Source: Candidatus Omnitrophota bacterium
Lineage (GTDB): Bacteria; Omnitrophota; Gorgyraeia; Aquiviventales; Aquiviventaceae
Direction of reading: 5' to 3'
Length of the DNA: 64,000 nucleotides
Assembly (NCBI GenBank): GCA_023247255.1
Contig: JAHFGV010000004.1
Span: 20,023 to 84,022 of the forward strand
Shown in pieces: positions 2,715 to 62,345 of this stretch (its first letter is position 1; each line of letters begins with the position of its first letter). The position numbers and the translations under genes were made by a program. The notes under the pieces were generated by a model. The model ran no database searches and was not told the origin of the DNA. It saw nothing but the letters and a program-made list of their open reading frames with translations.

Positions 2715-2734
2715 CGATTTTGTGGAGCCCCACA

Positions 2735-3150
2735 GGATGAGCCTGTCGCACTGATAACTTCTCCCCTCCCAAGGAATCATGAGAAACTGCCTTGGAATTT
2801 TCGATTCTCGATTTTGGATTTTCGATTGGAAGCCCCCTGTTCAATCGAAAATCGACAATCGTCAATCGACAATCCCACGGGATGAGCCTGTGGCACTGAT
2901 AACTTCTCCCCTGCCAAGGAATCATGAAACTGCCTGGGAATTTTCGATTCTCGATTTTGGATTTTCGATTGGAAGCCCCCTGTTCAATCGAAAATCGACA
3001 ATCGTCAATCGACAATCCCACGGGATGAGCCTGTCGTACCGGCAAGTCCGCCCCGATCGGGGCGACATCCCGCCAACCCAATCGGCTCTGCACTAGCGTG
3101 TCGCCCACAGCCTTCGGCCGTGGCGCAATGGCAGGGTTGATAAATTCCGC
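2735..3150. repeat. Composite repeat array: two ~145-bp units (hairpin CCACAGGATGAGCCTGTGG plus family-B palindrome) followed by one full family-A element (3015-3150)
   Basis: The unit cacaggatgagcctgtggcactgataacttctcccctgccaaggaatcatgaaactgcctgggaattttcgattctcgattttggattttcgattggaagccccctgttcaatcgaaaatcgacaatcgtcaatcgacaatc occurs twice, near-identical. It is followed by cacgggatgagcctgtcgtaccggcaagtccgccccgatcggggcgacatcc...ccttcggccgtggcgcaatggcagggttga. Confidence 0.85.
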
Positions 3151-18100: not shown

Positions 18101-21043
18101 ACCAATCGGAAAGACGTCGCTGCCGTTGGGGGAAGTCACCTGAACGGCTCCCTTGATTCGAAAGACGTTGTTGGAGGTATCAAAGATGGCGGGCGCATCT
18201 ACATTGCTGATCTTGACGCACGTGTTGCCACCGATGGCATCCGGAATCGTCCACGGGAAGCTTCCGGCCGAGGCCAGCGTCGATGCTACGATCGATGTGT
18301 ACGTACCCCCGCATCCTGTGCTTGAATACTCCAACTTCACGTTATTGACGCCAGTACCGTTGATGGTCCAGGTAATGTTCTGCGTGGTGCCGACAAGCCA
18401 CACCTCGGTTCCACTGTTAGGGCTGTCGACGACAATCGAGGCCACGATTGTGAAATCCGCATCGGATTCATCGAACGTCGTGGCATCCCCGTTTTGCTCC
18501 ACTTTAATTCGCGAGAACGACCCGATTGCAGCAGTCGGAATGGTCCAGGCATAAGTACCCGTTGCCGAAGCGGCTGTCACGATCGTATCTCCGTTTGGCG
18601 CTGCGTAGGAACCCCCACTGTTCTTGGAATAGTAGATGTTCACGCCTGTGGGGGGCAATGTTCCGGTAGAGGTCCAAGTGATGTTGTAGGTCTTTAGGGT
18701 TTCCCAGTTCGGGCTCTGGGGTCCGTTTGGCGTAGTGACGGTGATTCGCCCTTTAATGCTGAAATCAATGTCGGACTGGTCGTTTACACCTGAGGCATCT
18801 GAGGAAAGTTCGGCACCGACCCGTAGGTCGGTGCGAATCTTGTCCGGAACCGGTGTCCAGTTGTAGGTCCCGACGCTGGGAGTCAACCCTGTCGCAATCG
18901 TGCTATCGAAAGTGGTACCGCTGGCTGTATAAAGCTTCAACGTCACGGTGCCGTTGTCATCCAAGTTCCCCGTCCGACCCCATGTGATTGTGCGGCAGTT
19001 CGCTCCAGGACAAGAGTCGCCTACGAACCAGGACACCGCGGTGTTCGGAGAGGTCACCGTGAGTGTTCCTTTAACAGTGAAGTCGGCATTGGAAACATCA
19101 GAGTTCCGAACGAGCAGGTCCAAGTCGGTGATCTTCACCCTCAATGTAGACACGTCGAGATCCGTCGCCCCAATGCTCGCGGGAATCGTCCAGGGAATGG
19201 TATCCAGATTCGCGCAGACGTCGGAGGCAATGCCCAACGGGTAGGTGCTGCCGCCGTTCGTTGAAAGCTCAATCTTCAGTCTGTGTGCAGGCCCTGCTGA
19301 ATTGCACGTTCCACTTGATTCCAGCTCGGCGGCGTGCTTCCAGGTGATATTGTGGCTCTCTCCGACTTTCCATACCTCGCTGCCGTTGGGGCTTTTGACA
19401 GTCAACGGCGTAAACTCAGTGACGAAATATTGGACATCGGCTGCAATCGCCGCAGCGATGCTCTGGTTGGTTCCTGAGCGCACGCTGGCAAAAGTGGTCG
19501 AGGTGGTGGCCGCTCCAATTGGCGGTAGCAGCTCCACGGCAAACCCAAGATCATCCGCATAGTCTCTGGTCGTGTTGCTGGAACCTGTCGCCGTCGTTGT
19601 CGCTGCTCCAAGAACCAGTGTCCGGCTAGGTCTCACCGCGGTGAGTGAGGCGGTTTTCTGAGCCGGTAGAACATAGCCAGTCGTGCCACCGGCTCCCAGG
19701 CCGTGCGAAGCAGAACCGCTCAGTTTCAACTGTGTGGATGTGCAGGCGGGTGAGCAGTCGCTGCCGGTAAGAACGTGCCAGTTACCGTTCACTGGGTTGC
19801 TGACGGAACCCCCAACGCTATGGCCGCTTACATTGATCAGATCGCCGGTACTCAAGCCGTGAGCAGCGCTTGTCGTTATCATGATCGGCGTAGCGTCCGT
19901 CGATGAAGAAATCGCAATGCGGGCGGGTGTGCCGCCCGTGCCGCCTCCCCAGGAGTGGGTGCCTTTTTGAACCAAGCTGATTCCATCGATGAGATCCACA
20001 ACGTGGTAGCGTATACGTCCCTCGCTATTTGTGTTGGTCGACGCATAGCCTCTGGTAAAAGTAATGGTGGTGCCGCTCGTTACTGTGCCCCGAGCGTAGA
20101 TTTGATTGTCCCATCCTGCTATCCCTGAGCCACCGGTGAAAGAGGTGAACAACAACGCGTTCGCCCCGCCGCTGGAAAGACCAGGGCTCAGGGGCCCGGA
20201 GTTGACAGGCAGCGGCCCTCCACCGTCGGGATCCAGTCCGTTGTTCGTGGCGGTTTGGTTCGTGGCTGCGGTGCCAGGCACCGGCAGCGAGACTATCCCG
20301 GTGTAAACTGTCGTATCCGTCAAAAACTCGATGACCTGCCACACGATCTGAGTGGCTTTGGTGCCTGTGCCAGCAAACCGCTCGACTCTCAGATTGGAGT
20401 TATCGATAAACGAAGGGAGTAGGTAGAGTTGATGCGTCTGGTTTTGGCTGGTGAAGGCGCCTTTGGTCATGACAATCGGCACGGCGTGACAGGGAAAGGT
20501 TATGGGAGTACACCCGCTCGTATCCAACGCCATCGGGATAGTGATGGTCTTGTTCAAGTCTGTCGGCTGCAGGCTCGAAATGCCTCGCTGTACGCTGACT
20601 CCATCGACGAACTCAATAACCTGCCAGGAGACGCTCGCGCCGCTGGTGCCACCCCCACGCTCGATGTCAATGGTGTTGTTATCCTCAAACTGGGCGACGA
20701 AAAACCAGTTCTGATCGCGTTGTTGGCTAATGCTGTCGGCTTCGGTAGACAGCAAGATGATGGATTTGGATTGGTCCACCGGGTAGGTCAGGTTGATGGC
20801 TTGAACGACGTCGTCCGTGTCAAAGTTGGCGATGCCGCTTTGTATCCTTTTAATCTGCACGGCTTCTGCAAGGGGGCCCCAGAAACTCCAGATGAGGACA
20901 GCAATGAGCGCTGTCCAACCGGCGAGAAACCGTGGAACAAAAACGGTCGGTCGCGCCCGTACAGGCCGCATCAGAAAATCAGGGGCGTCATTGCTGTGCA
21001 TCATCAGCATCTGTGGGAATGCCTTCCGAAAGCTCCGGCTCAA
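3161..21043 (-). CDS. giant repetitive cell-surface protein (~5,960 aa; ~50 tandem Ig-like/Kre9_KNH-like ~85-90-aa repeats; adhesin/S-layer-like)
   Basis: Single uninterrupted 17.9-kb ORF. The N-terminus has a hydrophobic signal or anchor (FLAGWTALIAVLIWSFWGPLAEA). The probable start is MRPVRARP at ~20971, which removes the overlap with the upstream lipoprotein gene. A ~640-aa unique N-region precedes about 50 repeats of consensus GSLTLTAPNGGExWxVGxxQNITWTxxGxIxNVKLEYSTDGGxTYPNxIxAST...YAWTIPDAIxTxxRVRVSDxxDxTVxDxSDANFKI. A ~900-aa unique C-terminal region is Ser/Thr- and coiled-coil-rich. Confidence 0.85.
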   Translation of the reverse strand: MSRSFRKAFPQMLMMHSNDAPDFLMRPVRARPTVFVPRFLAGWTALIAVLIWSFWGPLAEAVQIKRIQSGIANFDTDDVVQAINLTYPVDQSKSIILLSTEADSISQQRDQNWFFVAQFEDNNTIDIERGGGTSGASVSWQVIEFVDGVSVQRGISSLQPTDLNKTITIPMALDTSGCTPITFPCHAVPIVMTKGAFTSQNQTHQLYLLPSFIDNSNLRVERFAGTGTKATQIVWQVIEFLTDTTVYTGIVSLPVPGTAATNQTATNNGLDPDGGGPLPVNSGPLSPGLSSGGANALLFTSFTGGSGIAGWDNQIYARGTVTSGTTITFTRGYASTNTNSEGRIRYHVVDLIDGISLVQKGTHSWGGGTGGTPARIAISSSTDATPIMITTSAAHGLSTGDLINVSGHSVGGSVSNPVNGNWHVLTGSDCSPACTSTQLKLSGSASHGLGAGGTTGYVLPAQKTASLTAVRPSRTLVLGAATTTATGSSNTTRDYADDLGFAVELLPPIGAATTSTTFASVRSGTNQSIAAAIAADVQYFVTEFTPLTVKSPNGSEVWKVGESHNITWKHAAELESSGTCNSAGPAHRLKIELSTNGGSTYPLGIASDVCANLDTIPWTIPASIGATDLDVSTLRVKITDLDLLVRNSDVSNADFTVKGTLTVTSPNTAVSWFVGDSCPGANCRTITWGRTGNLDDNGTVTLKLYTASGTTFDSTIATGLTPSVGTYNWTPVPDKIRTDLRVGAELSSDASGVNDQSDIDFSIKGRITVTTPNGPQSPNWETLKTYNITWTSTGTLPPTGVNIYYSKNSGGSYAAPNGDTIVTAASATGTYAWTIPTAAIGSFSRIKVEQNGDATTFDESDADFTIVASIVVDSPNSGTEVWLVGTTQNITWTINGTGVNNVKLEYSSTGCGGTYTSIVASTLASAGSFPWTIPDAIGGNTCVKISNVDAPAIFDTSNNVFRIKGAVQVTSPNGSDVFPIGSSRNITWNNNGTVSGTVEIRYSTDGGSTYPNVIVASTPIGGASGSYSWSPIPDVTGGINNTVKVRVIPSDTVNVADDASDSNFSIKGTVVLGAPNGGGTCTVGQSCPVSWTKTGSIGNVELHYSTDGGATFPAGKLIATGLDPVSGTPYNWATPDDIDSDIRVRVRLVTDTSVEDQSDANFSIKGTLTLVAPNNGEVWKVGETNRNITWTRVGTTGSMAGNVELRYSTNGGTSYDTLINSTTAASALSYNWNPIPDAIETQLRVKVTLVTDTTVFDTSDANFTIKGQLTVTQPNTNLIWFVGDTTRNITWNTNGTVSGVKLYYATDGATFSNPIAGGASISNVGSYNWNPVPDIIGTNVKVRLENAADSTVYDDSDTGFTVKGTLTLTAPNGSQSWVVGDTQNITWTKTGTLSGNVKLLYSTDGGATYPDPGNMITNSVAVTAGSYAWTVPDAIDNDLRVKIVYLNETSVTDESDANFTIQGSLNITFPDGGEVWELGTSQNITWNLTGTVGAVKLEYSTDGGSTYPNLIIASTPSDTDPPTGGNNGQYAWTIPSNAPLSTTARVRITPVTAGKAAANASENNFRLKGKLTITAPNGGQTWVVADPQNITWTTLGAIANAKLEYSTDSGSTWPAGNVIVSSTPAGAGSYTWIVADGISAQCRIRISDASDASVIDASDADFTIRGSLALTAPNGGQSWVVGTTQNITWTKTGTLPNVKLEYSTNSGVSYTNLIVASTSGGNLSYPWTIPDSIGTTRRVKVTYDTTPDVLDLNDTSDADFTIRGSITVTAPNGNEGWPINATQNITWVKTGTLTGNLKLEYSTDGGTTYPVGNLISNTVPATDTSYAWTVPDNPTTQGRVRITQLDDTNVTDPSDANFSIKGSLFIQAPDGGEVWKVSESRNITWTRGGSIANAKLDLSKDGGATFPIAITASTPAANLSYAWTLPDEIDTDLRVRITDVNDNTVTDASNGNFTIKGTLTLGSPNGGETWIVNDSRNITWAKTGTIPNVKLEYSTNGGTTYPNVIVSSTAGSSLSFAWTIPDSIGTQLRVRITNVDDVTVTDDTNANFTIKGSVTLTAPNGGETWIVGSSQNVTWTKQGSIANVKLEYSKNGFADELQTFTIVASTPAAPLSYAWTIADAIGAQLKVRVSDASDSTVNDVSNTNFTIKGALTLTAPNGAELWTVNSSRAVTWTRTGSITNVKLEYSTNSGSTYPNLITASTDAATGTYAWTLPDAITATAKVRVSDTSDATVQDESNAVFKIVGVLTLTAPNGGEKWTVGNSQNVTWTRIGSIANAKLEYSTDGGTTYPNLIVATTVASSLSYAWTIPNTPSATVKVKVSDVDFPSDVSDVSDANFKIKAGLTLTAPNGGEVLTVGSAQNITWTTVGTAANVKLEYSADGGSTYPNVITASASNSGSYSWTVADAISTTVRVKVSDAADTDAFDTSDVNFKIRGSLLLTAPNGGEGWQINTVQNITWTRTGSLPNVKLEYSTNGFSDELQTYVITASAPADPPPVDNNGLYAWTIPNTPSATVKLRVSDASDATVSDLSNANLSIKGSVTLTAPNGSEVWVVGATQNVTWNVFGAITNVKLQYSTDGGATWPAGNLITASTSANTDPPVGADNGQYSWTIPDVIGTQLRVRVSDAADASVFDDSDANFKIRGSITVSAPNGGETWIVGASQNIAWTRTGSFANVKLEYSTNGFSDELQTFLISASAPASPLNFAWTVPDAIGTTLKVRASDAADITVVDISNAHFEIKGSLTVTSPNGVEVWKVGESRNITWTKTGTIATVKLEYSTNGGTTYPNIIASSTSATSGSYTWSVPDAIGTQLRVKITHTGDATVNDASNANFEIKGQIALTSPNGGEVWIVGTSQNITWTKQGTFATVKLEYSTDGGSTYPTVISASADAVTGTPYAWTIPDAIGTQLRVNVTSNADTTVNDASDANFKIVGSLTLIAPNGSEAWAVGTSQNVSWTKVGSITNVKLEYSTNGGTSYPNLITASTGAGTGIYAWTIPDAISATVRLKVTDASDSTVYDTSNADFKVMGGFVLTSPNGGEVWAVGESRNITWTTAGSVVNVKLEYSTDGGATYPNLIIASTSNTGTYAWTVPDAISTTVKVRISDASDANAFDVSNGNFKIRGSLLLISPNGGEAWPISTTQNVTWSKMGSIANVKLEYSTDGGATYPNLIIASVFATSGTPYAWTIPDAPATTVKVRVSDVSDSTVFDESNANFKIQGLLTITAPNGGEVWIVGSSYNITWTKFGSILNVKLQYSTDGGITWPDPGKVIIASTAAATLSYTWTIPDDISNTVKVRITDTGDTSVFDDSNANLGIKGSLTVTAPNGGEIWVVADTQNITWTKTGTIPNVKLEYSKNGFADELQTFLITASVPSTPSAYAWTIPDAISNTVKVRLSNVSDPTVSAVSNAYFAIKGSLTLNAPNGGETWIVGASQPITWSKVGSIANVKLEYSSDGGVSYPDVILASTSASAGSYSWTIPDAITTTARVKVTDVSDSSVFDISNTNFKIAGSLTVTAANGAEAWLIATTQNITWTRTGSIANVKLEYSTNGGTSYPNLIVASVSATTGTPYAWVIPDTPTTQAKIKVTNTADSSVYDESNANFNIRGSVTLSEPNGSEVWVVGESRAITWMRTGSFPNVELRYSTDGGTTYPSLITASTSAGTLSYAWIVPDALSTGVRVKITDTGDSAVTDVSDANFKIKGSVTLTSPNGAEVWIVGASRNITWTRTGSFANVKLEYSTDGGTTYLNLITASAPAAPLSYAWTIPDAINTSLKVKISDENDATVVDVSDANFTIKASLTLNAPNGGETWIVGSSQNITWAKTGTIVTVKLEYSTDGGSTYPNVITLSSPAAALSYVWSIPDTLSSTVRVKITHLTDATVNDTSNGNFKIAGSFTLTAPDGGEVWIVGATQNITWTKTGSIATARLDYSTDGGVSYPSAITSSVSASALSFAWTTPDNMSSTVKVKITDTSDSTVFDASNGNFKIAGSFTLLSPNGGEKWPAGSTQSITWTKTGSMVNAKLEYSTDGGTTYPNLIVATTPASALSYAWVLGTTTSTQVRVRITDVSDSTVFDASNANFKIMGGFVLSSPNGGEVWVVGETRNITWTTVGNVANVKLSYSVNGGTTYPNAISASTTNTGSYAWTIPDAIGTTLRVKVEDVLDPDAYDESNANFKIKGSLTLSSPNGGEIWTVESNQNISWTKAGSIANVKLEYSTDGGTTYPVGSLIATSLNATTGTPFAWTIPDAISTTVKVKVTDVTDATVYDESNASFTIRGSFNLTAPNGGEKWTVGTTQSILWSTFGTIPNVRLEYSTDGGSSYPNVITAASSNTGSYNWTIPNAITTTMRLRVSNAADAGTFDASDADFKVKASFAMTAPDGGEVLVVGVSQGITWTTAGTVANVKLEYSTNGGTTYPNGIATSAPNTGTFAWTVPDAISATVRIRVSDVTDTVDAFDTSNGNFKIRAGFTVTAPNGGEAWTVGSVQNITWISAGTVANVKLEYSTDGGATYPSVVASSIANIGTYAWTIPDAITTAARLKVSDVNDTTASDASNTNFKIQGFLRITAPNGGEKWTVGSVRTVTWDRNGSIPFVKLEFSTNGGGLYAPITASTSNTGSFAWAIPDNISTNCLVKVSDTNDATVNDASDVIFKIQAGFTVTAPNGGEVWAVGSARTITWLTNGTVSFVKIDYSTDSGSSFPNLITSSTSNTGSYGWTVPDNVTGSVRVRVSQTTDAEAFDTSDGDFRIRVIFTLTSPNGAEQWRVGQVQNITWGIVGTIPNVKLQYSRDGFNADLQTINASAPSIGSYGWTVPDAISNTVRVRVSDPNDIGALDDSNADFRITGDFTVTAPNGTEQWVVGSVQNITWAKTGSVSNAKIEYSTNSGGTWTTIAGLTPNNGTFAWTIPDTITAQGRVRLSDPVDATANDISNADFKIKAGFTLTAPNGAEIWTVAQSRTIAWTNTGTVSLVKLELSTNGGTAYQPIQENYQTLNDGVVQNTGAYTWTVEDAISTQVRIRVSSSTDSDANDASDGNFKIQGSLTITNPNGGENFPIGQLRDISWLRLGSIANVKITYSTDAGTTYPNVIVASTPANPTFYPWTVADAPTTMARVKVEDVSDATVFDASDASFNIQGNFTISAPNGGELWSVGESRNIAWSWGGTIPNVKLTYSTNSGSTYSDVIANSAPNGVGSSGTFNYAWMVPDSISSAVRVRIEDVNDANVSDVSNADFKIQGRLNIVTPNGLERWVVNEIRTISWTTAGTLPTVKLEYSTDGGATYPAGNVIVALLTNTGSYNWLVPNTVSMTSRVRVVNTADVTVSDQSDADFKIDLYKVSFRVRDLLTNNHLDQLTVSAGTPSQPGSTQPPAYTWTESGLSSIIKDKPLQYGSWSAKFSRVSYGDQTLNFVVDRDYPETAPLDVFMETQVVHIWEAVTEFAYVPAVQALPNLNPPIAAVADSLTVTSTLRRDGSTVTGPVLCQVDIYDGATLIQSFVANGPPNALGFYSSPQYNFTWSPTSLTAGKVYSVVTTINIATGGVFKTPRTLTINVEQKLQDVKHEVNKNLDVPLSQVRTDIQGTLDTFTHSISTSISTLDTAAKNSQTASNTLISAANQSQATANDLRTVANQQSAKLLTPQEINTGLPLIIRWRGPRDTQGLSLSPKITIENFDKIAVVSEVAMQPISGAQNLFEWSSEWGLAEQVITATKFQPGKTITVTVKDDAIGSFQVGTIFVKRPEGRLLMKTSAKIGETISIQLAGADNWTPLIELSADGVVLTAKTPMKKVGSDGKVTTFEYLVPESVGSLVPIGKSVVALVTESLTGFFDQGSFQFTGTSLDDLSGQIAASSASRGVIQDTYTAVKNLQGSLGGDGQLGQKLEVLKQRIDRIPKAVAEEGSNVRMKQAINDVAERISALAGDEGYDFSQLMEMGVEKGLEKSDSIQNIRKKTDTVQGATEVMQLLMENKLGGIDDPVVHVIYQ

Positions 21044-21426: not shown

Positions 21427-22857
21427 TCAGGTCTCGCTGGTTACCTGACTTGCGTCGCGTCCGGGCTGGCTGGTCCCTACGAAACGAAAGGTGATGGCCG
21501 GTTGTCCCATCGCCTGACGGGTTAGAATACCGTGCATCGTTCGGCCATCCCATTCCCCTCGCCAGCAGATGATCTCGCCACGAGGACCGGTCTGCATCGT
21601 TTCCCAGAGTATCGTTCCATCGGACTGAACGCTCAACGAATAGTTTGAACTCTCAAAACCCTGATCGCTGAGGGACGTAGAGGTAACCTTTCCCGCTTCG
21701 AATTGGAGACGATCGATCTGCGGCGCCACGTCACCGGTAGCATCCAGAGGACGAATCTGTACCTGCCAGATCGTTCCGGCTAATCGGGATGGCTGGATAA
21801 AATTCGCCAATTGAGTCGTTGGACCCGCGGGGAGTGCATCCACAGGGTCCAGAATCGGTAGCGTCTGTTCCGTGGCGAGTGAGCGCAGCGCCTGCCGCAT
21901 AGTCGCGAGATTTTTAGCATAGAGCCCAGCGGCGCAGAGTAATAGGATCGCAACCGACAGGCTTGCAGTCAAAAACAAGGAGGGCCCTGGATGCGGATAA
22001 CTATCTTGTACGGATCGAGACATCAGACGAGGATCGTCGGACCTCGACGCCAAAGCCGGTTCCGGTCCAGAGTAAACCGGTGCGCGATCCTCACGGTGCG
22101 TTTCATCAGCAGGACGATAGGCGTGTTTCGACCGCTCACGAACCGACGTCACGAACGCCGCTGAGCCGATAATCCCATGGGATGTCAATTCCTGAACGAA
22201 CCGATCCCATGCAGAAATCGGCACCGAGTGCAGGTAATCCTCATAGCTTACCCCAGGCTGTTCGCGGCGGATTAGCTCGAGAACCTCGCTCGATTCAACC
22301 GACAGCAACGGTCTGACCGTAGGGGAGGGTAAGGTAGAAATAGAAAGAAGATAACTCGGGTAGCTACTCCACGGGTAAGCGTATGGATCGTCCGTTAGGC
22401 CGAGCCGTCGTGGTTGGACATGGAGATAACCAGTGATTCGAAGCAGCGAAGGCGCCTTTTCCAGAATCGTCGATTTGAATCGTTCGCGAAACACATGGCC
22501 CGTGCGACCGTAGCGACGGTTAACGTACTTGGTGTAGCGCGAATTCACCCCATGCATGATATCGGAGACGGTTGCCCGATCCGTCAGCTCAAGACACAAC
22601 TCGATGGAATCTGGCAGGAGAACATACCCAAAGACCTTGAAACCGGAGGACTGGCGGTACTGCTCCAGCAATCCAAGATAATGGGTGTAGTCTTGGTCAT
22701 CCCGAAACAGACTCATCCCTTCGGCAGCCCTAGCAGCGACGTAGTACAGTGCCCCTTCGACATGGATGCGTAGAGGTCGTGGCATCGTATTACTGCGCCC
22801 TCCAACCGGTTGGTGCCTGGCACTGGGTGGGTGCCTGGCACCCGGTGCCAGGCACAA
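21427..22857 (-). CDS. Y1/HUH transposase-like (RAYT/IS200-like) domain protein with degenerate active site, fused to a TM helix and a periplasmic domain
   Basis: The N-terminal ~130 aa fit the IS200/RAYT fold pattern (LRIHVEGALYYVAARA...FGYVLLPDSIELCLEL...MHGVNSRYTKYVNRRYGRTGHVFRERFKSTIL). The HUH position reads SIE and the GRYK Tyr is Phe (ERFKS). The TM helix is LFLTASLSVAILLLCAAGLYA, and the C-terminal domain is shared with the 229-aa secreted protein. The probable start is MPRPLRIHVEG at ~22785. Confidence 0.6.
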   Translation of the reverse strand: MCLAPGARHPPSARHQPVGGRSNTMPRPLRIHVEGALYYVAARAAEGMSLFRDDQDYTHYLGLLEQYRQSSGFKVFGYVLLPDSIELCLELTDRATVSDIMHGVNSRYTKYVNRRYGRTGHVFRERFKSTILEKAPSLLRITGYLHVQPRRLGLTDDPYAYPWSSYPSYLLSISTLPSPTVRPLLSVESSEVLELIRREQPGVSYEDYLHSVPISAWDRFVQELTSHGIIGSAAFVTSVRERSKHAYRPADETHREDRAPVYSGPEPALASRSDDPRLMSRSVQDSYPHPGPSLFLTASLSVAILLLCAAGLYAKNLATMRQALRSLATEQTLPILDPVDALPAGPTTQLANFIQPSRLAGTIWQVQIRPLDATGDVAPQIDRLQFEAGKVTSTSLSDQGFESSNYSLSVQSDGTILWETMQTGPRGEIICWRGEWDGRTMHGILTRQAMGQPAITFRFVGTSQPGRDASQVTSET

Positions 22858-22885
22858 AAAAACTGCGGCACACGCTGCCGCAGCT
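22855..22885 (-). terminator. Rho-independent terminator (minus strand): hairpin ctgcggcagcgtgtgccgcag followed by TTTTTTT
   Basis: Read on the minus strand, a perfect 8-bp stem (ctgcggca/tgccgcag) is followed by a 7-T run at 22855-22861. It lies within a REP-like hairpin cluster (22811-22854: GTGCCTGGCAC repeated twice direct and once inverted). Confidence 0.5.
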
Positions 22886-23271: not shown

Positions 23272-25977
23272 CTATCGGGGAACTGGCCGTACAAAGATAG
23301 TATCTCCATGCTCTAACGAAAGTGGCTCCTGGACCTCTCCCTGAATATAGGCAATCGCCAATCCTGAGCTGTCGATCTCGGTAACCTCGACTTCAAGGTT
23401 AGATTGACGGCCGGTATCCAGAAGGAGTCGCTCACCTTCTTGGACGTCTTCGAGTCCTCTGAGGATTACAAATCCCAACTCTGTGCTGATTCCAATGACT
23501 TCGATGACAGAGCTGCCTTTAGTGGGAGGGCTTGACTGTTTATCCATCGCTCTTTTATCTATGGAAGACTGTAATGGAACGGACCCGGTTTTATGGGCAG
23601 CCGCAGATTCATACTGGGTGAGCTTGGCCTCTCGTTTCGCAATCTGCTCTTTAAGCTGCGTGATGTAGCGTTCCTGCGAAGCAATCTGTTCGAGGGCACT
23701 TGAAAGTTGCGAGTCAGACTCGTGGAGCCCAACGGGATGAGCCTGTGGCACCGGTAAGTCCGCTTCGAGTGAGGCGACATCTCGCCCACCCAGTCGGCCC
23801 TGCACTGCCGTGTCGGCCATGGCTTTCGGCCTTGGCGCAACGGCGGGATTAACGTACTGCACCGAGTGCGATTCGAACAAACGCTTATCAAAACCAGCTA
23901 CCGTCGTCGCATGTATATTTTGACTGGCACGTAGCAGCTCAATCTCTTTGGCCAACTCGCGCTCACGCGTTCGTGACTGTGCCCATTGGCGTTGGAGTTG
24001 CTCCAGTTGCTCTGTAAGATGCGAACGGTCCGCCTGAAAACGCAAGAGATCTTGTTCACGGCTCATCAAAGCGTCAGTAGATTCTTTGAGTTGGCTTTCC
24101 AATTCGGCAACCCGTTGTTGAGATCGACTCAGGCTTTCTTTCAACTGCAAATGAGACTTGCGACTCGGCTCAACATCTTCAGAAAACTTTGCATACTTGT
24201 CCTCTGCAACCGTCAATTGTCGGGTAAGCACCTCTACGCGTTCTTGATACTGATGCTGAGTCGTTTCCAGCTGACTGACTTGTTTCGTCCAATGATCACG
24301 AAGAGAATCCACTCCTTTGATGAGCTGAGTCTGCGCTTGTTGCGCCTCTGTCAATTGTGCGGTACGCGCGTGAAGCATTTGTTGCAGTTGCTGATCGTGG
24401 GTCTTCAACGTATCCCTCTCGGATTTAAGCGCTGTGGCGATCTGACTCAACTGGTTGTGCTCCTGCTGACCATCCGCAACCACCCTCTGAAGCTCCGCAA
24501 CCTTCTGCCGCATCCCTTGAAGCTCATCGGTCAGAGTTTGCATACGGACTTTTTCTACCTTTGCATCTTCCATCACCCGGGCTAATTCCCTCTGCGACTG
24601 ATCCAGTGCCTGATTGAGTCGTTGCCCTGTTGCGCGGATTTGTTGAAGATCAACAGCGTCTTTTCTTGCGTTTTCGAGCCGAACCTGGGCATCCTTGAGT
24701 GCCGTCGTCAGCTCTTGATTCGATTGTTCAAAACTACTGGCTGTCTGAGTCTGCGCCTTGAGTTGTTCACTGAGTGTTGCATTCGCCTGCTGGAGTTCGA
24801 GCAGCTCATCCATCGCCTGCTGCCATTGTTCTTGTAGAGACGTCAATGCCGCTCGCGCAGTCACCGACTCTTCCTGCCGGTAAGTCAACTCCGTCCGTAA
24901 CTCCTCCCGACGGCCTTCCCATTGAGCCAGCTGCTGGCTGCTTGCGTCTAATTTACTCTGGGCGGATTCTAGGGCTTCCGTTAATTGAACGTTAGTCTGC
25001 TGCACAGTTTCCGATTCCTTCTTCAACTTCCCATTAACTTCTCGCAGACCTCCCAAATCCTGCTGCCGCTCGGTGAGTAATGCCTGAAGCTGCGTCAATT
25101 GCTGCTGCGTGTGCTGCTGGCTGTCCTGTAGCATATGAGAATTTTCTTTTTCGGTAAGCAACGCCTGAAGAAGTCGCTGGCGATCCCGTCCTACCTTGAG
25201 TAACTCTTGACCCAACTGTTGGGTCTGTTGGGTTTTACCGGTTAATGCCTCTCGTAATTGCTTGATCTGTTGTTGGTTACCCGAAACCCGTTGCCGCAGT
25301 ACAGTCGCTTCTTTCTCTTGAGTCTCACGTCGAGCCTGGAGTCCTGCGAGTTGGTCATTCAGTTGCCGTAACGCCTCTTGCACCTGGGTCAGCACCTCTG
25401 TTTTCCGAGTCAGTTGTTCGTCTAAAGACGCTTTAGCCTCTTTCACAGTGGCCAGTTCTGCTTGCGCCGCTAGACTCTCCTTGCCCAAACGCGATGATTC
25501 ACTCTGAAGCTCATCGAAACGGGTCTGGAGCTGAGCCATCGCCTCCTGAGCTTGATGCAGCGCTTCCTCCTTGAAGGTCAACGTTTCTTGCAATTGCTGG
25601 CTTACCTCGGCCCGTTCTTTCACGGCACGTTCATAGTCACTTTGGAGCTGGCGCAATCGATCTTGAGACGATGCTGCCTGTTCCTTATATGTGGTCAGAT
25701 CGGTGGTTGCTCGACTGAGATTGGCTTCTGTATTTGACAAAGCCTGCGCCAACTGTTTCCGCTCCTGCTCACTGTCTTCGAGACTCGCGGTAAGCCCTCT
25801 CAAAGCATCATAGACCGACTCTTCGTTCTGGCCCGTGCGTGTGACAGGCTCACCCGAAACAAAGGACATCCAAGACAAACTCCCGATAATCACAAGTCCA
25901 AACAATGTCTTCCGGAACCTTACTTTCATCGGTTGTCCAATTTCATCTTTATTGAGAAATAATAAGGGTTGTTTCAT
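23272..25977 (-). CDS. long coiled-coil envelope protein (901 aa) with N-terminal signal/TM, C-terminal PilP/GspC-like beta domain, and an in-frame family-A element
   Basis: N-terminal hydrophobic segment (LFGLVIIGSLSWMSFVSG) and ~650 aa of heptad-rich Q/E/L/R coiled coil. Residues ~705-745 (NPAVAPRPKAMADTAVQGRLGGRDVASLEADLPVPQAHPVGL) are encoded by the family-A element at 23735-23860. The C-terminal tail is a beta-domain (GFVILRGLEDVQEGERLLLDTG...GDTIFVRP). Confidence 0.7.
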   Translation of the reverse strand: MKQPLLFLNKDEIGQPMKVRFRKTLFGLVIIGSLSWMSFVSGEPVTRTGQNEESVYDALRGLTASLEDSEQERKQLAQALSNTEANLSRATTDLTTYKEQAASSQDRLRQLQSDYERAVKERAEVSQQLQETLTFKEEALHQAQEAMAQLQTRFDELQSESSRLGKESLAAQAELATVKEAKASLDEQLTRKTEVLTQVQEALRQLNDQLAGLQARRETQEKEATVLRQRVSGNQQQIKQLREALTGKTQQTQQLGQELLKVGRDRQRLLQALLTEKENSHMLQDSQQHTQQQLTQLQALLTERQQDLGGLREVNGKLKKESETVQQTNVQLTEALESAQSKLDASSQQLAQWEGRREELRTELTYRQEESVTARAALTSLQEQWQQAMDELLELQQANATLSEQLKAQTQTASSFEQSNQELTTALKDAQVRLENARKDAVDLQQIRATGQRLNQALDQSQRELARVMEDAKVEKVRMQTLTDELQGMRQKVAELQRVVADGQQEHNQLSQIATALKSERDTLKTHDQQLQQMLHARTAQLTEAQQAQTQLIKGVDSLRDHWTKQVSQLETTQHQYQERVEVLTRQLTVAEDKYAKFSEDVEPSRKSHLQLKESLSRSQQRVAELESQLKESTDALMSREQDLLRFQADRSHLTEQLEQLQRQWAQSRTRERELAKEIELLRASQNIHATTVAGFDKRLFESHSVQYVNPAVAPRPKAMADTAVQGRLGGRDVASLEADLPVPQAHPVGLHESDSQLSSALEQIASQERYITQLKEQIAKREAKLTQYESAAAHKTGSVPLQSSIDKRAMDKQSSPPTKGSSVIEVIGISTELGFVILRGLEDVQEGERLLLDTGRQSNLEVEVTEIDSSGLAIAYIQGEVQEPLSLEHGDTIFVRPVPR

Positions 25978-26114: not shown

Positions 26115-26804
26115 CTAGCGACCGAACCATCCCTTGCGTTTCTTGGAAGCTGGTTTTTCCGAGGACGGAGTCGGTGACTGTATCGCTGATGACTGATCTT
26201 GAACCTGCTTTTGAACCGCTGATTTTTCTACGGCGTGCTTTCCTGCTGCCGAATTGCTATTGCTTCGTTGACCGGAAAAAGAAAAATCCTCTGCATTTCC
26301 CTCGAGGGGATGCTTGCTGACTATCCCTCGCATGGCCGAATCATGAAGCTCCCCTCGCCAAAACACGACCCCTTCGTTTTCTTTGGTTTGCATCGTCTCC
26401 CAAACCACCATCCCGTCGTCTCCAATAGTAATCGTATAGTTGGATGATGGATACCCCTCCTTCATCAACCGTTTAGATGAGACTTTGGCAGAATCAAACT
26501 GTATGGTATCTTGTCGAGTCTTGAGTGGCTCGCCAGGGGATATCGCAGTAAGTTCCAATGTCCATTCGGTCCCATTTAATTGAACCCGTATTTCCTCCTC
26601 AGCTGATTGGGGTCTTGCTGAAGTTGTTTCAGTCGTTGCCGAAGCAGGAGAATCTGCGATTGTGTCTGCTACGGAAACAACTGAGCCGGCCGATAGACTT
26701 CCTTGCGGTTTAGCATCCTCCGCACGTACCGTTACGATAGGAAGATGAATTAAGACACTGCTTAAAAGAACCCACACTACAATCTGCATCCTCCGTTGCA
26801 TCAT
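26115..26804 (-). CDS. secreted hypothetical protein (229 aa) with a domain paralogous to the C-terminus of the RAYT-like fusion protein
   Basis: Signal peptide (MQIVVWVLLSSVLIHLPIVTVRA). The block IQFDSAKVSSKRL...SSNYTITIGDDGMVVWETMQTKENEGVVFWRGELHDSAMRGIV aligns to LQFEAGKVTSTSL...SSNYSLSVQSDGTILWETMQTGPRGEIICWRGEWDGRTMHGIL in the 21427..22857 protein. Confidence 0.6.
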   Translation of the reverse strand: MMQRRMQIVVWVLLSSVLIHLPIVTVRAEDAKPQGSLSAGSVVSVADTIADSPASATTETTSARPQSAEEEIRVQLNGTEWTLELTAISPGEPLKTRQDTIQFDSAKVSSKRLMKEGYPSSNYTITIGDDGMVVWETMQTKENEGVVFWRGELHDSAMRGIVSKHPLEGNAEDFSFSGQRSNSNSAAGKHAVEKSAVQKQVQDQSSAIQSPTPSSEKPASKKRKGWFGR

Positions 26805-26863: not shown

Positions 26864-28030
26864 TCACTCCAAACGTTCTTCTCCCTCCCATGCCCGCCAG
26901 GTAGCGATATACTGTTTGGCCCAGCTCACATCCTCCCCCTTTGGGCTTACTGCTAAATAACGCTGAAAATACTTGATCGCCTTCTCTCGGTCAAGCAGAT
27001 GTTCCGCGTAGACAATCCCTAAGTTGTAGTAAGCACCTGAGTCGTCCGGCCTCAGCTCGATCACTTTCTTAAATTCTTTTGAGGCTCGGACATAGTCCTT
27101 TTTTTTTACGAACATGACCCCCATATTATAATGGGTATCGGCAAGATCCCGGATGAGTCGCTCGTGTTCTTTGGCAATGGTCCCTACTTCTTTGGGTAAA
27201 GCGTTTACCTGGCGCCTCAATGAAGCGTTTTCGGACACTTGTTGAGTATATTGATTTTGAAGATCCTCTAAACGTTGCTCAAACTTCGTAAGGTCTTTCG
27301 CAGTAGTAGCTTCTCGCTGGGATGCTGTTTGAAGGGACCGTTTGGCATCGCGAAGTTCCCTTTGAAGAACCGTCTGTTTCTTGGCCATCTGCGTCAAACG
27401 CAAGCGCAGGGCTTTTTCCTGGGAACGCTGTTTGACATCCTGGAGTTGTTTTTCAAGCGTTTCACGTTCTTGAAGAAGCCGCGTCTGGGCCGTTTGAAGA
27501 ATCGTTACCTGCTCCTTAAGCGGCGTGAGTCGATACAACAGCTCCGAGCGTTGTTGTCCGGTTCGCTGAAGCAGCTGTTCGAGAAGACTGCGTTCCGCCT
27601 CTGCCTGGGTGTGTTGTTGTGCGATGCGTTGTACCTGGGTTAAAAGATTATCCCGGTCACTGGTAATCTGTTCGTATTGCTGGGAGAGATTCGCGTAGCG
27701 CTGTTGCATATCTTGAAACTGATGTCCAACCCAGGCGCTTTGCTCTTGAGCGATTAGGCGTTGGACATCTGTCAAACGAAGTTCCGCGTTGAACGCCTGC
27801 CAGGCACAAACCCCACCGATAACGACCGTAGCTGCCGATACAAAAGCGATGATTGCCCAAATCGTTACCTTGCCCTTTAATCCTAAATGGAACCCCACAG
27901 GATGAGCCTGTGGCATCGGTAAGTCTGCCCCGATGGAACCGACATCCCGCCCACCCATCGGCCTCTGTACTGCCGTGCCGCCCACGGACGAAGACCGTGG
28001 CACAATGGCGAGGTTGCGAGAGAAAATCAT
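26864..28030 (-). CDS. FimV/HubP-like membrane protein: N-terminal family-A-encoded peptide, TM helix, coiled coil, C-terminal TPR repeats
   Basis: N-terminus is MIFSRNLAIVPRSSSVGGTAVQRPMGGRDVGSIGADLPMPQAHPVGF (element-encoded), followed by a TM helix (VTIWAIIAFVSAATVVIGGVCAW), coiled coil, then TPR-like HYNMGVMFVKKKDYVRASKEFKKVIELRPDDSGAYYNLGIVYAEHLLDREKAIKYFQRYLAV. Its ATG overlaps the secretin stop (ATGA). Confidence 0.6.
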   Translation of the reverse strand: MIFSRNLAIVPRSSSVGGTAVQRPMGGRDVGSIGADLPMPQAHPVGFHLGLKGKVTIWAIIAFVSAATVVIGGVCAWQAFNAELRLTDVQRLIAQEQSAWVGHQFQDMQQRYANLSQQYEQITSDRDNLLTQVQRIAQQHTQAEAERSLLEQLLQRTGQQRSELLYRLTPLKEQVTILQTAQTRLLQERETLEKQLQDVKQRSQEKALRLRLTQMAKKQTVLQRELRDAKRSLQTASQREATTAKDLTKFEQRLEDLQNQYTQQVSENASLRRQVNALPKEVGTIAKEHERLIRDLADTHYNMGVMFVKKKDYVRASKEFKKVIELRPDDSGAYYNLGIVYAEHLLDREKAIKYFQRYLAVSPKGEDVSWAKQYIATWRAWEGEERLE

Positions 28031-34194: not shown

Positions 34195-34385
34195 CGTGCC
34201 CTCAATCCAGTGGCGAGGAGGTGTTAGCAGGCTGGGAAAAAGTCCCGCAGCGCTCAAGGCTGAGAGAATTTTCGATTGTCGATTTGTTGTGTTTTTCAAT
34301 CGGCAATCGACGATTGACAATCGACAATTCGTTGGGCCTCCGCCTCCAGCCAACCGCTAACAGCCCCGATCCCTGAACAAATAGG
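34195..34385. repeat. family-A fragment plus family-B palindromic element copy
   Basis: Reads gagaattttcgattgtcgatttgttgtgtttttcaatcggcaatcgacgattgacaatcgacaattcgttgggcc, which is related to the 2800-3010 and 61420-61510 / 62070-62300 copies. Confidence 0.6.
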
Positions 34386-45673: not shown

Positions 45674-46201
45674 CTAACGGTAGTTTTCCGCTTGGATAGG
45701 CACCCCGAAATCCTTTGATTTTACAGTCTGAATAACCATCCGTAAATCATCGACCTGCTTGCCTGAGACCCTTACCGTGTCTCCGTCAATTCGTGGCTGT
45801 ACCTTCAATCCGAGAGACTTGATCACCCTTACGATCTCCTTAGCCTTTTCTGAAGAAAGTCCCTGCTGAAGAACCGCTTGTTGCTTCACCCCCCCTGCAG
45901 GCAAAAGCTCGGGGGCCTTCCAGGCTAAGGCTGTAAGCGAAACTCCACGTTTGGCTAGCTTGGTCTCGATCACATCAATGACACTCTTGATTTGTGCTTG
46001 ATGGTCAGCCGTGACTTTGACGTTCAGTAAGGCTTCCTCAAAAGTCACGCTGGCACTGCTGTTTCGAAAGTCAAAACGTGTGCCAATCTCTTTTTGCGCC
46101 AGCTGAATGGCGTTGCGAAACTCCTGAAGATTGACTTTCGAAACCAGATCCATGCTGTGTTCTTGAGCCATCAGCGATGTCCGACTGAGGAAGACAGACA
46201 A
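45674..46201 (-). CDS. yajQ: YajQ-family (UPF0234) nucleotide-binding protein
   Basis: MDLVSKVNLQEFRNAIQLAQKEIGTRFDFRNSSASVTFEEALLNVKV... matches the YajQ pattern (FDIVSEVDLQEVRNAV..A..E...RFDFRG). The likely start is ~46153. Confidence 0.75.
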   Translation of the reverse strand: MSVFLSRTSLMAQEHSMDLVSKVNLQEFRNAIQLAQKEIGTRFDFRNSSASVTFEEALLNVKVTADHQAQIKSVIDVIETKLAKRGVSLTALAWKAPELLPAGGVKQQAVLQQGLSSEKAKEIVRVIKSLGLKVQPRIDGDTVRVSGKQVDDLRMVIQTVKSKDFGVPIQAENYR

Positions 46202-47100
46202 GCCTCAAGGGCTGGGAGCAACTGCCCGTAGCGAAATCGATAGCCCGCTTGAAGGCAAACGCGTGGGAAGACTCGTTGTCCCGTAAGCAATAAAGTCGCC
46301 ATCTCCCCAAGCATAACACGCAATGCCACGGCGGGCACCGGCACCCAACAGGGACGATGCATCCGATCGGCAAGGCTGCGGCAAAACGCACGCATCGTCA
46401 CCGGCTCTGGAGCGGTGGCGTTAACTGCACCAGTCACCTGGGCATGACTCAACAACCACTCTATAAGAGCGACGAGATCATCCCGATGGATCCAGGATAC
46501 CCATTGACGCCCGCTGCCCAACACACCCCCTACAAAGAATCGAAAGGGATCGACCATTTTTGCCAGAGCCCCTGCCCCCGCAGCCAAAACCAGACCGATG
46601 CGAAGTCGAATCACACGAACCCCTAAAGACTCCGCACGAGAAGCTTCGTTCTCCCACATCTGGCAGATATGGGCTAGAAAACCCTTTCCTGCGGGAGCGC
46701 TTTCGTCCAACAACTCGTCTGAGTGGGGACCATAATAGCCAATCGCTGAGGCGTTGATCAAAACATTCGGTCTTCGGCTAAGACGAGTCATCGCATCGAC
46801 CAACCGATGGGTAGATTGAATGCGACTCTCCCGAATCTGAATCTTCTGCCTCCGACTCCAGCGCTTGGATGCAATCGATTCCCCGGCAAGATTAACCAGG
46901 CCATCACAGGTCTCAAGAACGTGTGGCCATTCGGAACCCTCCCACTCAAGAAACCGGATGGGAGAAAGCGAATCTCCTTTTTCCACATTCAATCTCCGAG
47001 ACTGACGGGTCAGTACAAACACCTCATGGCCATGCCGGATTAAATGAGAACACAATGCCTGACCGATGAATCCCGTCCCTCCGGTGATGAGCAATCTCAT
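46171..47100 (-). CDS. yfcH: TIGR01777-family NAD-dependent epimerase (YfcH-like, C-terminal DUF1731)
   Basis: MRLLITGGTGFIGQALCSHLIRHGHEVFVLTR...VNLAGESIASKRWSRRQK...GSGRQWVSWIHRDDLV... is collinear with E. coli YfcH. Confidence 0.8.
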   Translation of the reverse strand: MRLLITGGTGFIGQALCSHLIRHGHEVFVLTRQSRRLNVEKGDSLSPIRFLEWEGSEWPHVLETCDGLVNLAGESIASKRWSRRQKIQIRESRIQSTHRLVDAMTRLSRRPNVLINASAIGYYGPHSDELLDESAPAGKGFLAHICQMWENEASRAESLGVRVIRLRIGLVLAAGAGALAKMVDPFRFFVGGVLGSGRQWVSWIHRDDLVALIEWLLSHAQVTGAVNATAPEPVTMRAFCRSLADRMHRPCWVPVPAVALRVMLGEMATLLLTGQRVFPRVCLQAGYRFRYGQLLPALEACLSSSVGHR

Positions 47101-47104
47101 TTTT

Positions 47105-47225
47105 TAAGAACGGATGCCCCACCCCGATCGGGACGACAGGATGTCGTCCCCCCTAAGTCTTGCTCCACCCTGTGGCCCATAGCCTTCAGCCGTGGCGCAA
47201 TGGCGGGGTTGATGGTTTAACAGGA
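47105..47225. repeat. family-A palindromic element, diverged intergenic copy
   Basis: Reads ...ccccgatcgggacgacaggatgtcgtccc...ccaccctgtggcccatagccttcagccgtggcgcaatggcggggttgatgg, including a 9-bp stem (gggacgaca/tgtcgtccc). Confidence 0.6.
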
Positions 47226-52252: not shown

Positions 52253-52253
52253 C

Positions 52254-54689: not shown

Positions 54690-54749
54690 AACACCCTCCT
54701 TTTTTCATTACAGATTGCAGATTGTGAAAGACACTCATTTGAAAATAGC

Positions 54750-62024: not shown

Positions 62025-62345
62025 GTGGAGCCCCACAGGATGAGCCTGTGGCACAGGCACTCCCACACCTTGGGATTTTCGATTGTCGATTTTGGATTGT
62101 CGATTGGAAGACGGTTGTTCAATCAAAAATCGACGATCGTCAATCGACAATTTCCTCGGCTCTCTTGATTGAAAGCTCATCTTCCTTCGATCTCCTTAGG
62201 ACGTTCAAAGAAACTGCCTTGGGATTTTCGATTGTCGATTTTGGATTTTCGATTGGAAGACGGCCGTTCAATCAAAAATCGACAATCGTCAATTGACAAT
62301 ATCGTGATGCAACCGTCGAGGGTTGGGGGCGCAATGGCGGGATTG
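62025..62345. repeat. family-A 5' fragment, two family-B palindromes, and a family-A 3' fragment
   Basis: ccccacaggatgagcctgtggcac (62025), then ttttcgattgtcgattttggattgtcgattggaagacggttgttcaatcaaaaatcgacgatcgtcaatcgacaat (62070-62150) and a second copy (62225-62300), then gggggcgcaatggcgggattgc (62315-62340). Confidence 0.7.

Follow-up and report, generated by a model that had tools for sequence, protein, structure and literature searches.

Rickettsia palindromic elements (RPE-1 to RPE-10; Ogata et al. 2000, as summarised in PMC10969869) are repeats of ~100–150 bp with palindromic stretches and no gene of their own. They are present in many copies per genome and often lie in frame inside unrelated, often essential genes, adding a peptide to the product while being conserved at the DNA level. 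Here, we describe an element of similar behaviour in a 64,000-nucleotide stretch of contig JAHFGV010000004.1 from a Candidatus Omnitrophota bacterium, hereafter the window. One copy of this 129-nt element, the 23.7-kb copy, lies inside the open reading frame (ORF) of a 901-residue coiled-coil protein. A sequence-only reading of the window had proposed an RPE-like in-frame element at this site and had named the evidence that could refute it, namely the same segment in orthologous proteins, genomic copies without frame bias, and divergence dominated by synonymous changes; all three were looked into, and the idea, which is one of analogy, survived.

The Omnitrophota element is likened to RPEs by behaviour and not by sequence. 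It is a dispersed repeat with three hairpins and more than 30 copies, and it is inserted in frame in unrelated genes, with eight host proteins and Pfam matches restored upon excision. It differs in having three short separate hairpins where an RPE has one long palindrome, in being used in both orientations, in swapping hairpin modules and in having a conserved left-flank motif. Its hosts are free-living or episymbiotic bacteria of the Omnitrophota and the Planctomycetes–Verrucomicrobia–Chlamydiae (PVC) superphylum, not Rickettsiales; because they are labelled Omnitrophota or Planctomycetales, common descent with RPEs seems unlikely.

IS200/IS605-derived elements and repetitive extragenic palindromes (REPs) are the model for single-strand movement by HUH/Y1 enzymes. 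The IS200/IS605 family and the palindrome-associated transposable elements (PATEs) have similar subterminal hairpins on the same strand, no terminal inverted repeats, a conserved left-flank sequence that resembles the right terminus, and a strand bias. The Omnitrophota element likewise has similar same-strand hairpins near both ends, no inverted repeats, a short motif in the left flank only that resembles its right terminus (TCRAC versus TCCAC) and a strand bias; it differs in that no cognate TnpA or full-length parent was found in the 8-kb flanks of its copies. Mobile GC clusters of yeast mitochondria and the Magnusiomyces 'byp' elements, GC-rich and hairpin-forming as well, also enter coding sequence and yet do not destroy the gene. 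Ribosomes skip byps, which do not have to keep the frame, whereas the frame and stop constraints of the Omnitrophota element indicate read-through translation.

Intragenic REPs have been described in a number of bacteria, among them Opitutus terrae of the PVC superphylum, where they are of the GTAG/CGTC type (PMC3733652); intragenic cases also occur among ERIC/IRU (enterobacterial repetitive intergenic consensus/intergenic repeat unit) and other small enterobacterial mobile sequences (PMC2759123). The REP/REPIN system with its REP-associated tyrosine transposases (RAYTs) shares with the Omnitrophota element GC-rich hairpin repeats that are mostly intergenic and sometimes in frame in genes, a host in the PVC superphylum and a movement thought to be single-stranded via a Y1 HUH enzyme; 865 nt downstream of the 23.7-kb copy there is a RAYT-like gene. 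However, REPs are units of 20–40 nt with a GTAG/CGTC tag and REPINs are inverted pairs of them, whereas the Omnitrophota unit has a fixed length of 129 nt with three hairpins and lacks a conserved tag, GTAG/CGTC occurring only sporadically, in variable stretches (L001, L035 and L004). The RAYT-like gene (ORF 21427–22785) does not combine HUH and Tyr motifs with flanking copies of the same repeat. ERIC is an imperfect palindrome of ~127 bp that is transcribed and lies mostly between genes, an occasional copy being inside a gene, in frame and with an open frame; it differs in being one long imperfect palindrome with terminal inverted repeats, in the rarity of its intragenic copies and in its unrelated hosts and sequence. 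We found no description of such an element in Omnitrophota in the literature, and a preprint on complete Omnitrophota genomes (10.64898/2026.06.07.730766) contains no mention of palindromic elements or of MITEs (miniature transposable elements with inverted repeats). The element is a new family of a known kind and will cause specialists little surprise.

A repeat family with in-frame copies and an empty allele

The 23.7-kb copy belongs to a repeat family that has intragenic copies in frame, an empty allele and conservation at the level of the nucleic acid. Its host protein is called identically on three independent contigs. An exhaustive HMMER search with the 149 C-terminal residues that follow the element returned 14 proteins, whose long members (P0005, with 972 residues, P0003, P0007, P0006, P0011, P0014 and P0009) are built to the same plan of a coiled coil, the motif RELAxExELLRxS, a variable linker and the same C-terminal beta domain. 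The homologues (P0005, P0003, P0007, P0011 and others) are 24–38% identical to the 901-residue protein. In the alignment, an extra stretch that includes the 43 residues of the element is found in the window protein alone, and these residues are absent from all homologues; P0011 aligns on either side of it, with ELVRAG upstream and SYTAQLKELLSKREEVL downstream. The ORF is free of stops ahead of the element and its next start codon lies ~80 codons beyond it, which marks it as one gene with an in-frame insert in its linker. Since distant homologues have the same flanking architecture without the segment, we regard the 23.7-kb copy, on this alignment, as a true in-frame insertion in the variable linker. 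The sequence-only reading had placed the element at 23735–23860, inside the protein at residues ~705–745: the repeat is real and internal, in frame at residues 711–753, and its coordinates are corrected by ~10 nt. A word-indexed protein search with the whole 901-residue protein, saturated by coiled-coil candidates, returned nothing, and the metagenome scan gave no close orthologue of the gene and no near-identical empty site for the 23.7-kb copy. Candidate junction peptides of the protein are LFESHSVQYVNPAVAPRPK and a tryptic peptide of DVASLEADLPVPQAHPVGLHESDSQ...

Outside the window, a DNA pattern spanning two conserved blocks was run against genome and metagenome collections and found the 129-nt element (43 codons) in at least 30 further places, in metagenome-assembled genomes (MAGs) of Omnitrophota, in a Planctomycetales-labelled MAG and in metagenomes. 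Full copies include 21 in MAG loci, with partial matches besides, and one on an ENA contig (L001), which adjoins an IS3-type transposase gene and has G-C in the 3' stem where the window copies have A-T. Pattern matches with other spacings were set aside as chance. Copies in Omnitrophota-labelled and Planctomycetales-labelled MAGs are ~70–95% identical in DNA, far above protein-level identity. The element peptide, used as a protein query, gave a single match, on that small ENA contig, and two scans of viral contigs found no copies. The window at 50391–56774 is syntenic with positions 1891–8000 of L005 (Omnitrophota MAG JACPAW010000010), with 46–77% amino-acid identity; this shared gene cluster at 50.4–56.8 kb would place the window organism near the JACPAW01 lineage.

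For each copy, the openness of all six frames was measured on both sides, and long frames were translated. Real genes harbour about one third of the copies, in either orientation and without loss of the host frame: seven independent copies in long ORFs are read in forward frame 0 and at least five in reverse (Table 1), and every in-gene copy is stop-free in the host frame. Pfam matches identify the host genes as real and place the element within their domains. The Pterin_bind match of FolP covers positions 1–215 of 244 at 285.9 bits with the 43 residues and positions 1–244 at 297.9 bits without them, and the CofH_C match grows from positions 3–89 to 3–119 of 125 once the 43 residues are removed. 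The other copies are intergenic, among them two just ahead of a ribosome-binding site and start codon (L041 and L030) and one between divergent genes (L047/L059). Hence the check on genomic copies returned what the RPE analogy predicts, with copies that are intergenic or in unrelated genes, in both orientations, and a host frame that is always open; the peptide common to the three window copies follows from their shared DNA. In ProB (L049), a 150-nt variant at 187–336 and an 81-nt remnant at 765–845 lie in two different frames, both in reverse. In L026 and L045, the upstream gene has no stop at the element bridge; these loci are either real element-mediated gene fusions or genes whose stop was lost by insertion near the 3' end.

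The folP gene provides the empty counterpart of a filled site. A search with a 'cured' FolP found P0016 (L061–L064, from four metagenomes), an allele 95% identical in protein to the FolP of L027 from which the element is absent; one metagenome (Ga0114945) has both the filled allele L058 and the empty allele. The empty site reads GTG GAC / GAG and the filled site GTC AAC (CCCGCC...CTCCAC) GAG, a net insertion of 126 nt. Because of this net difference, the element proper is probably 126 nt long (42 codons), with its leading RAY triplet derived from the target; in the 23.7-kb copy it would span 23722–23847, the first triplet AAT coming from the target. An alternative for the 126-nt net size is a 2-bp AC target duplication. 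The L027 allele (MAG JAUYPJ01) has 97.4% nucleotide identity to the empty allele along the 697 nt that end at the junction and 85% downstream, and its identity to the other filled allele is 91%; these figures suggest that recombination moved the filled allele, the breakpoint lying no more than ~10 nt from the element. The identical folP insertion occurs with a 3' hairpin of 19 nt or 40 nt, giving 129 and 150 nt, both multiples of three.

Structure, frame and target site of the element

The canonical 129-nt unit follows a flanking K-C and runs from RAY through CCCGCCATTGCG, the 5' hairpin CCACGGCC TTC GGCCGTGG, GCGGCATGGTGGTGC and a variable stretch to the central block GGGTGGGCGGGATGTCGCC..., a second variable stretch, GGTG, the 3' hairpin CCACGGGC TCT GCCCGTGG and the terminal GGCTCCAC. 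Its three hairpins are all on one strand, and it carries no gene. The 5' hairpin lies 15 nt from the 5' end and the 3' hairpin lies 8 nt from the 3' end; the two are direct copies on the same strand, with interchangeable modules (L017, L024 and L031). The three hairpins of the sequence-only reading are borne out across 23 copies, in which 92.5% of cells are paired, compared with 37–58% when the partners are slid; helices 1 and 2 are paired in 96–99% of cells and helix 3 in 98.6%. An alternative middle hairpin, CGCCCC-CATC-GGGGCG, is often disrupted with no compensating change and was rejected in favour of GGGCGG-GATG-TCGCCC, which is kept. Two-sided changes are found at 5 of 22 pairs, a number reached by 1 of 500 shuffles; the compensatory stem changes that had been claimed are thus present but modest, and the replacement of whole hairpins makes the stronger case, being in our judgement the best structural evidence that comparison of the copies offers. 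Such exchanges on a constant CCAC/GTGG foot are seen in L017, L020, L024, L031, L054 and L058. L024 has the hairpin CCACCCCGCC-NNN-GGCGGGGTGG at the 5' position, L031 has it at the 3' position, and L017 has a related form at both; a 40-nt hairpin stands in place of the 3' hairpin in L020, L049 and L058; and L054 and L019 have nested insertions in the loop of the 3' hairpin. The 3' stem of other copies has G-C replacing A-T, or wholly different stems on the same foot. Folded as DNA, MAG copies do better than shuffles (z −2.7 to −3.6). As RNA, the window copies had unremarkable z-scores. The 23.7-kb copy (z −0.9 as DNA) has mismatches in two of its three stems and is the most eroded of the window copies.

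Substitutions among 18 canonical copies are spread evenly over the codon positions, with entropies of 0.35, 0.42 and 0.47. Single-base synonymous and non-synonymous changes number 602/1006 in frame 0, 601/1028 in frame 2 and 637/992 in reverse frame 1, and entropy is 0.21 at paired and 0.51 at unpaired positions. As no frame has a synonymous excess, the supposed coding frame included, and stems are steadier than loops, the substitution pattern argues for selection on the nucleic acid, DNA or RNA, and not on the peptide. What selection keeps is two subterminal hairpins on a CCAC...GTGG foot, the central block and defined ends.

The left flank has the consensus K-C-R-A-Y over 25 copies, base −1 of the unit being C in 23 of them and base −2 being T or G, again in 23. 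The first triplet of the unit varies (AAC, GAC, AAT, GAT, TAC, CAT and others), and the first base past the unit is A in 15 of 25 copies. This consensus, with the one empty site and its net insertion, is compatible with insertion 3' of the target. Within host genes, KCRAY ends on a codon boundary in 96 of 190 occurrences (50%). The use of frame 0 by 7 of 7 forward copies is only mildly above expectation, in part because of the choice of KCRAY as target; the remainder may come from stops in frame 1, present in one third of the copies, and perhaps from a harsher, Arg/Cys/Trp-rich peptide in frame 2. We rejected a fixed coding frame as proof of peptide selection, since KCRAY ends on a codon boundary in half of its occurrences and stop avoidance accounts for the reverse frames. 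In the reverse orientation, the frame favoured by the motif often has stops and the frame seen is the sole one that is always open, which fits purifying selection on translated inserts and speaks against removal before or during translation. The element strand is the locally G-rich strand in 21 of 25 copies and in 9 of 9 further ones (30/34).

Copies in the window and neighbouring features

A covariance model built from 23 element copies (R1) was run without filters on the window, whose G+C content is ~53% and whose minus strand holds most genes; the contents include a 5960-residue repeat protein, a type IV pilus/secretin cluster and the 901-residue ORF. R1 gave three full copies, at 117–129 bits (E 1e-23 to 4e-26), one diverged copy and four fragments, all on the minus strand (Table 1); the palindrome of the 5' hairpin is matched on the plus strand too. 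The 20-mer of the 3' hairpin (CCACAGGCTCATCCYGTGGG, at most three mismatches) has six matches in the window, all minus, and none in 100 shuffles. The sequence-only reading had counted four full copies. These four regions align mutually, three of them well and the 47-kb region partly, and the count becomes three full copies and a diverged one at 55 bits. Its fragments at 2735, 2880 and 62025/62315 stand, and the one at 34200 belongs to a different repeat family.

Table 1. Copies of the element, their parts, hosts and associated repeats; coordinates are window positions unless a locus is named.
Feature	Position or locus	Strand or orientation	Details
Host gene of 901-residue protein	23272..25977	−	signal/transmembrane segment, long coiled coil, variable linker, small C-terminal beta domain
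Full copy of 129-nt element (23.7 kb)	23722..23850	−	R1 117.3 bits, E 1.4e-23, model positions 1-129
23.7-kb copy in 901-residue ORF	residues 711-753	in frame	NPAVAPRPKAMADTAVQGRLGGRDVASLEADLPVPQAHPVGLH
5' hairpin of 23.7-kb copy	23817..23835	−	CCAAGGCC GAA AGCCATGG; one A.A mismatch
Middle hairpin of 23.7-kb copy	23772..23787	−	GGGCGA GATG TCGCCT, within most conserved block GGGTGGGCGRGATGTCGCC
3' hairpin of 23.7-kb copy	23730..23748	−	CCACAGG CTCAT CCCGTTGG, two mismatches, then terminal GGCTCCAC
Full copy (27.9 kb)	27887..28015	−	R1 129.3 bits; directly after secretin gene stop
Full copy (3.0 kb)	3010..3138	−	R1 118.9 bits; spacer after 5960-residue ORF
Diverged copy (47 kb)	47089..47210	−	R1 55.3 bits, E 2.3e-10; intergenic
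3' fragment (3' hairpin and GGGGCTCCAC)	62025..62093	−	R1 24.9 bits; exact 20-mer match 62032-62051
5' fragment (AATCCCGCCATTGCGCC)	62307..62344	−	R1 14.3 bits, E 0.12
Two 3'-hairpin fragments, 2729-2748 and 2874-2893	2722..2911	−	R1 matches 2722-2821, 2875-2911
Family-B copies	2783-2911, 2926-3054, ~34290-34345, 61419-61547, 62061-62189, 62210-62338
Candidatus Omnitrophota MAG	JACPAW01		9 loci with copy
Candidatus Omnitrophota MAG	JAUYPJ01		8 loci with copy
Candidatus Omnitrophota MAG	JACQRD01		2 loci with copy
Planctomycetales-labelled MAG	CAYJRJ01		2 loci with copy
JGI/ENA metagenome contigs			9 full and 2 contig-truncated copies
In-gene copy	901-residue gene (window)	forward frame 0
In-gene copy	L008	forward frame 0	MqnC/CofH-like radical-SAM enzyme
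In-gene copy	L027 and L058	forward frame 0	FolP, identical site in two assemblies
In-gene copy	L039	forward frame 0	BatA/VWA protein
In-gene copy	L026 (2313-2441)	forward frame 0	GNAT and DegT aminotransferase joined into one ORF
In-gene copy	L045 (10820-10948)	forward frame 0	GNAT and GNAT joined into one ORF
In-gene copy	L056	forward frame 0	14 codons from gene end
In-gene copy	L007	reverse	PabB/TrpE
In-gene copy	L011	reverse	dGTPase
In-gene copy	L004	reverse	histidine kinase
In-gene copy	L032	reverse
In-gene copies	L049	reverse	ProB (glutamate 5-kinase); two copies

Three window copies had been described as in frame inside ORFs. This holds for the 23.7-kb copy; the 3.0-kb copy lies in a spacer and the 27.9-kb copy at the start of a gene. 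The latter makes up codons 6–48 of a called 388-residue ORF (26864–28030) with transmembrane, coiled-coil and tetratricopeptide-repeat regions (Pfam TPR). The start codon of this ORF overlaps the stop of the secretin gene (ATGA), and the copy either belongs to a 5' leader or is translated as an N-terminal insertion. The 3.0-kb copy lies 23 nt past the stop of the 5960-residue ORF, and its final ~9 nt are replaced at an abutting repeat of another family, family B; the other repeats of this spacer are read in two frames. The called 427-residue ORF begins upstream of the preceding gene's stop. This start is an artefact, and MVMMLIGCGF near 2715 is the likely one; the last fragment of the 2722–2911 pair ends 12 nt ahead of the likely start of the downstream gene. 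The 47-kb copy ends at the start codon of an epimerase gene (46171–47100), retains the 5' hairpin, has the middle hairpin swapped for one with a different stem, GGGACGACA TCC TGTCGTCCC, and lacks the 3' hairpin.

The family-B repeat (~130 nt) contains an inverted repeat of 36 nt in which CGATTGTCGATTTT/AAAATCGACAATCG abounds, and it is nested in the present element, family A, in the order A5'-B-B-A3' at 62025–62344 and A-B-A3'-B-A3' at 2722–3138; the joint A/B period is 143–149 nt, no multiple of three. The fragments at 62025–62093 and 62307–62344 are one disrupted copy with two family-B repeats filling its interior, and each fragment of the 2722–2911 pair comes after a family-B repeat. The 3' hairpin region of family A seems to be a landing site for B, or A and B were duplicated jointly.

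Two tRNA genes of the window, both on the minus strand, have repeats of their 3' ends. The last 18 nt of tRNA-Gly GCC (61578–61649) recur exactly 243 nt downstream (61335–61352), and those of tRNA-Leu TAG (61854–61935) recur exactly 153 nt downstream (61701–61718). Both repeats are preceded by a common 42-nt block (61374–61415 and 61739–61780; 76% identical), and each tRNA is directly followed by a perfect inverted copy of its own 3' end (61548–61562 and 61830–61842). These look like small insertions that target tRNA 3' ends. The 5960-residue ORF (3161–21043, minus strand) consists largely of ~50 tandem units of ~95 residues (285 nt), 60–75% identical in DNA, and is typical of the giant surface proteins reported for Omnitrophota.

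Origin, mobility and meaning for Omnitrophota genomes

We think it probable that the element is a selfish, non-autonomous in-frame repeat that has spread through Omnitrophota-type genomes and is RPE-like by analogy. One copy would have landed in the variable linker of the 901-residue coiled-coil protein, where its length, a multiple of three, and the lack of a stop in the host frame would leave the gene open, and the element would most likely be translated as a 43-residue insert rich in Pro, Gly and Ala. Intergenic copies would act as co-transcribed spacers, and copies that bring stops or frameshifts into genes were presumably lost. Mobility would be supplied in trans, possibly by a HUH/Y1-type transposase that cuts and pastes a single strand and inserts it just 3' of KCRAY. 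We favour this mechanism tentatively, because there are similar hairpins on one strand near both ends and no inverted repeats, and because the left flank resembles the right terminus and the strand is biased. A bolder version, unlikely in our view, has the element as the non-autonomous form of an undescribed HUH-type transposon, with a KC-RAY target that matches codon periodicity, insertion on codon boundaries after Asn or Asp, and a benign 42-codon loop rich in Pro and Gly. If true, this would be a parasite adapted to essential genes that has passed between PVC phyla, can exchange its hairpin modules and remains polymorphic in natural populations.

The RAYT-like ORF 21427–22785, on the minus strand, was considered as the mobiliser. 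It has an N-terminal RAYT/IS200-like Y1 domain (NCBIfam NF047646, REP_Tyr_transpos, E 1.9e-13 and 50.5 bits, under the cut-off of 80; PF01797, E 9.5e-6) in which the Tyr motif is kept and LLPDSIELC stands at the expected HUH site. A membrane segment and a C-terminal domain common to ORF 26115–26804 complete the protein, and three GTGCCWGGCAC palindromes lie just upstream (22815–22870). We rejected it on account of the lost HUH motif, the membrane segment, the common domain and the different flanking palindromes; it may be a transposase that is inactive or has been domesticated. Searched against PDB sequences, the RAYT-like protein gave no match.

Several points weigh against a selfish, transposing element. 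No transposase linked to the element was found in the flanks of its copies, and the sole nearby Y1/RAYT-like gene has S-I-E in place of the HUH histidines and another palindrome around it. We infer the translation of the insert from the reading frame. The folP pair would look the same after insertion, precise loss or transfer by recombination, and a 2-bp AC duplication fits this single empty/filled pair equally well. The bias towards the G-rich strand is confounded with gene orientation, three of the four exceptions being antisense to the host gene, and some loci are not independent. Strict covariation is weak, with 92.5% of cells paired compared with 90.7% in shuffles, a modest signal because the copies are very similar. 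As DNA, the window copies fold no better than shuffles (z −0.9 to −1.4).

Two other accounts also explain a dispersed structured repeat. The element could be a classical MITE from an insertion sequence with a DDE transposase, moving as a double strand and leaving a short target duplication. A size of ~130 nt and the copy number are typical of MITEs; AC closes the first triplet (mostly RAC) as well as the last (CAC), which could be a 2-bp duplication and would give the net 126 nt; and the L001 copy lies 27 nt from a putative end of an IS3-family element. However, the ends AACCCCGC and GTGGGGCT are weakly inverted, matching at 6 of 9 positions, and convincing terminal inverted repeats are absent; the left and right Y agree in two of the six copies where either varies, two hairpins are direct and not inverted copies, strand asymmetry is strong, and no parent insertion sequence with these ends was seen. 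We judge a MITE rather improbable. Less probable still is that the element serves the host as a structured RNA and was copied for this usefulness; it could then be a small RNA or a leader that regulates in cis, or it could stabilise or terminate mRNAs. Such a role would suit the conserved hairpins, the copies just upstream of starts or between co-directional genes (L041, L030, 47089–47210 and 27887–28015) and the transcription sense of all window copies; it does not suit the one third of copies inside coding sequence, around half of them antisense, the inconstant position relative to genes or the missing T-run after the 3' hairpin. Rfam matched two tRNAs alone in the window at the gathering threshold and left the element unmatched in five element-bearing loci at E up to 1, and the presence/absence polymorphism of folP suits a parasite better than a regulator. 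Intergenic copies could nonetheless affect mRNA stability, as REPs do, which is compatible with a selfish element.

The remaining accounts concern the protein. The segment might be removed after transcription, like an intron, or bypassed in translation, like a byp, leaving a protein without it. It is hairpin-rich and GC-rich, and RNAalifold can pair its ends (CCCCGC with GUGGGG), bringing the flanks together. Under this account, however, length and stops would vary freely, whereas every in-gene copy has a length divisible by three and no stop in the host frame, and folP kept its frame after a hairpin swap from 129 to 150 nt; Rfam similarity to self-splicing RNAs and intein-like residues are both absent. 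We hold removal or bypass to be very improbable. The least probable account, to which we give almost no weight, is an ordinary conserved motif or domain of envelope proteins, with the DNA likeness as a by-product of selection on the peptide. The three window copies do give similar peptides in the same frame, as do all seven forward in-gene copies. Yet many copies are intergenic or read in reverse frames within genes, the supposed frame has no synonymous excess, homologues of the host proteins lack the segment and host proteins are functionally unrelated, and the DNA identity of ~70–95% across Omnitrophota-labelled and Planctomycetales-labelled MAGs is far above that of proteins.

The selfish in-frame repeat that we prefer has practical and biological consequences. 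Gene callers read through the element, which accounts for ORFs in these genomes that are fused or start oddly (the 427-residue ORF, L026 and L045), and annotators of Omnitrophota genomes should mask it. In-frame selfish palindromic DNA in essential genes (folP, proB and pabB) occurs also in free-living or episymbiotic PVC bacteria and is therefore not peculiar to reduced intracellular genomes. The coexisting filled and empty folP alleles offer a natural system for studying the movement of the element and the tolerance of an enzyme to 42–50 loop residues.

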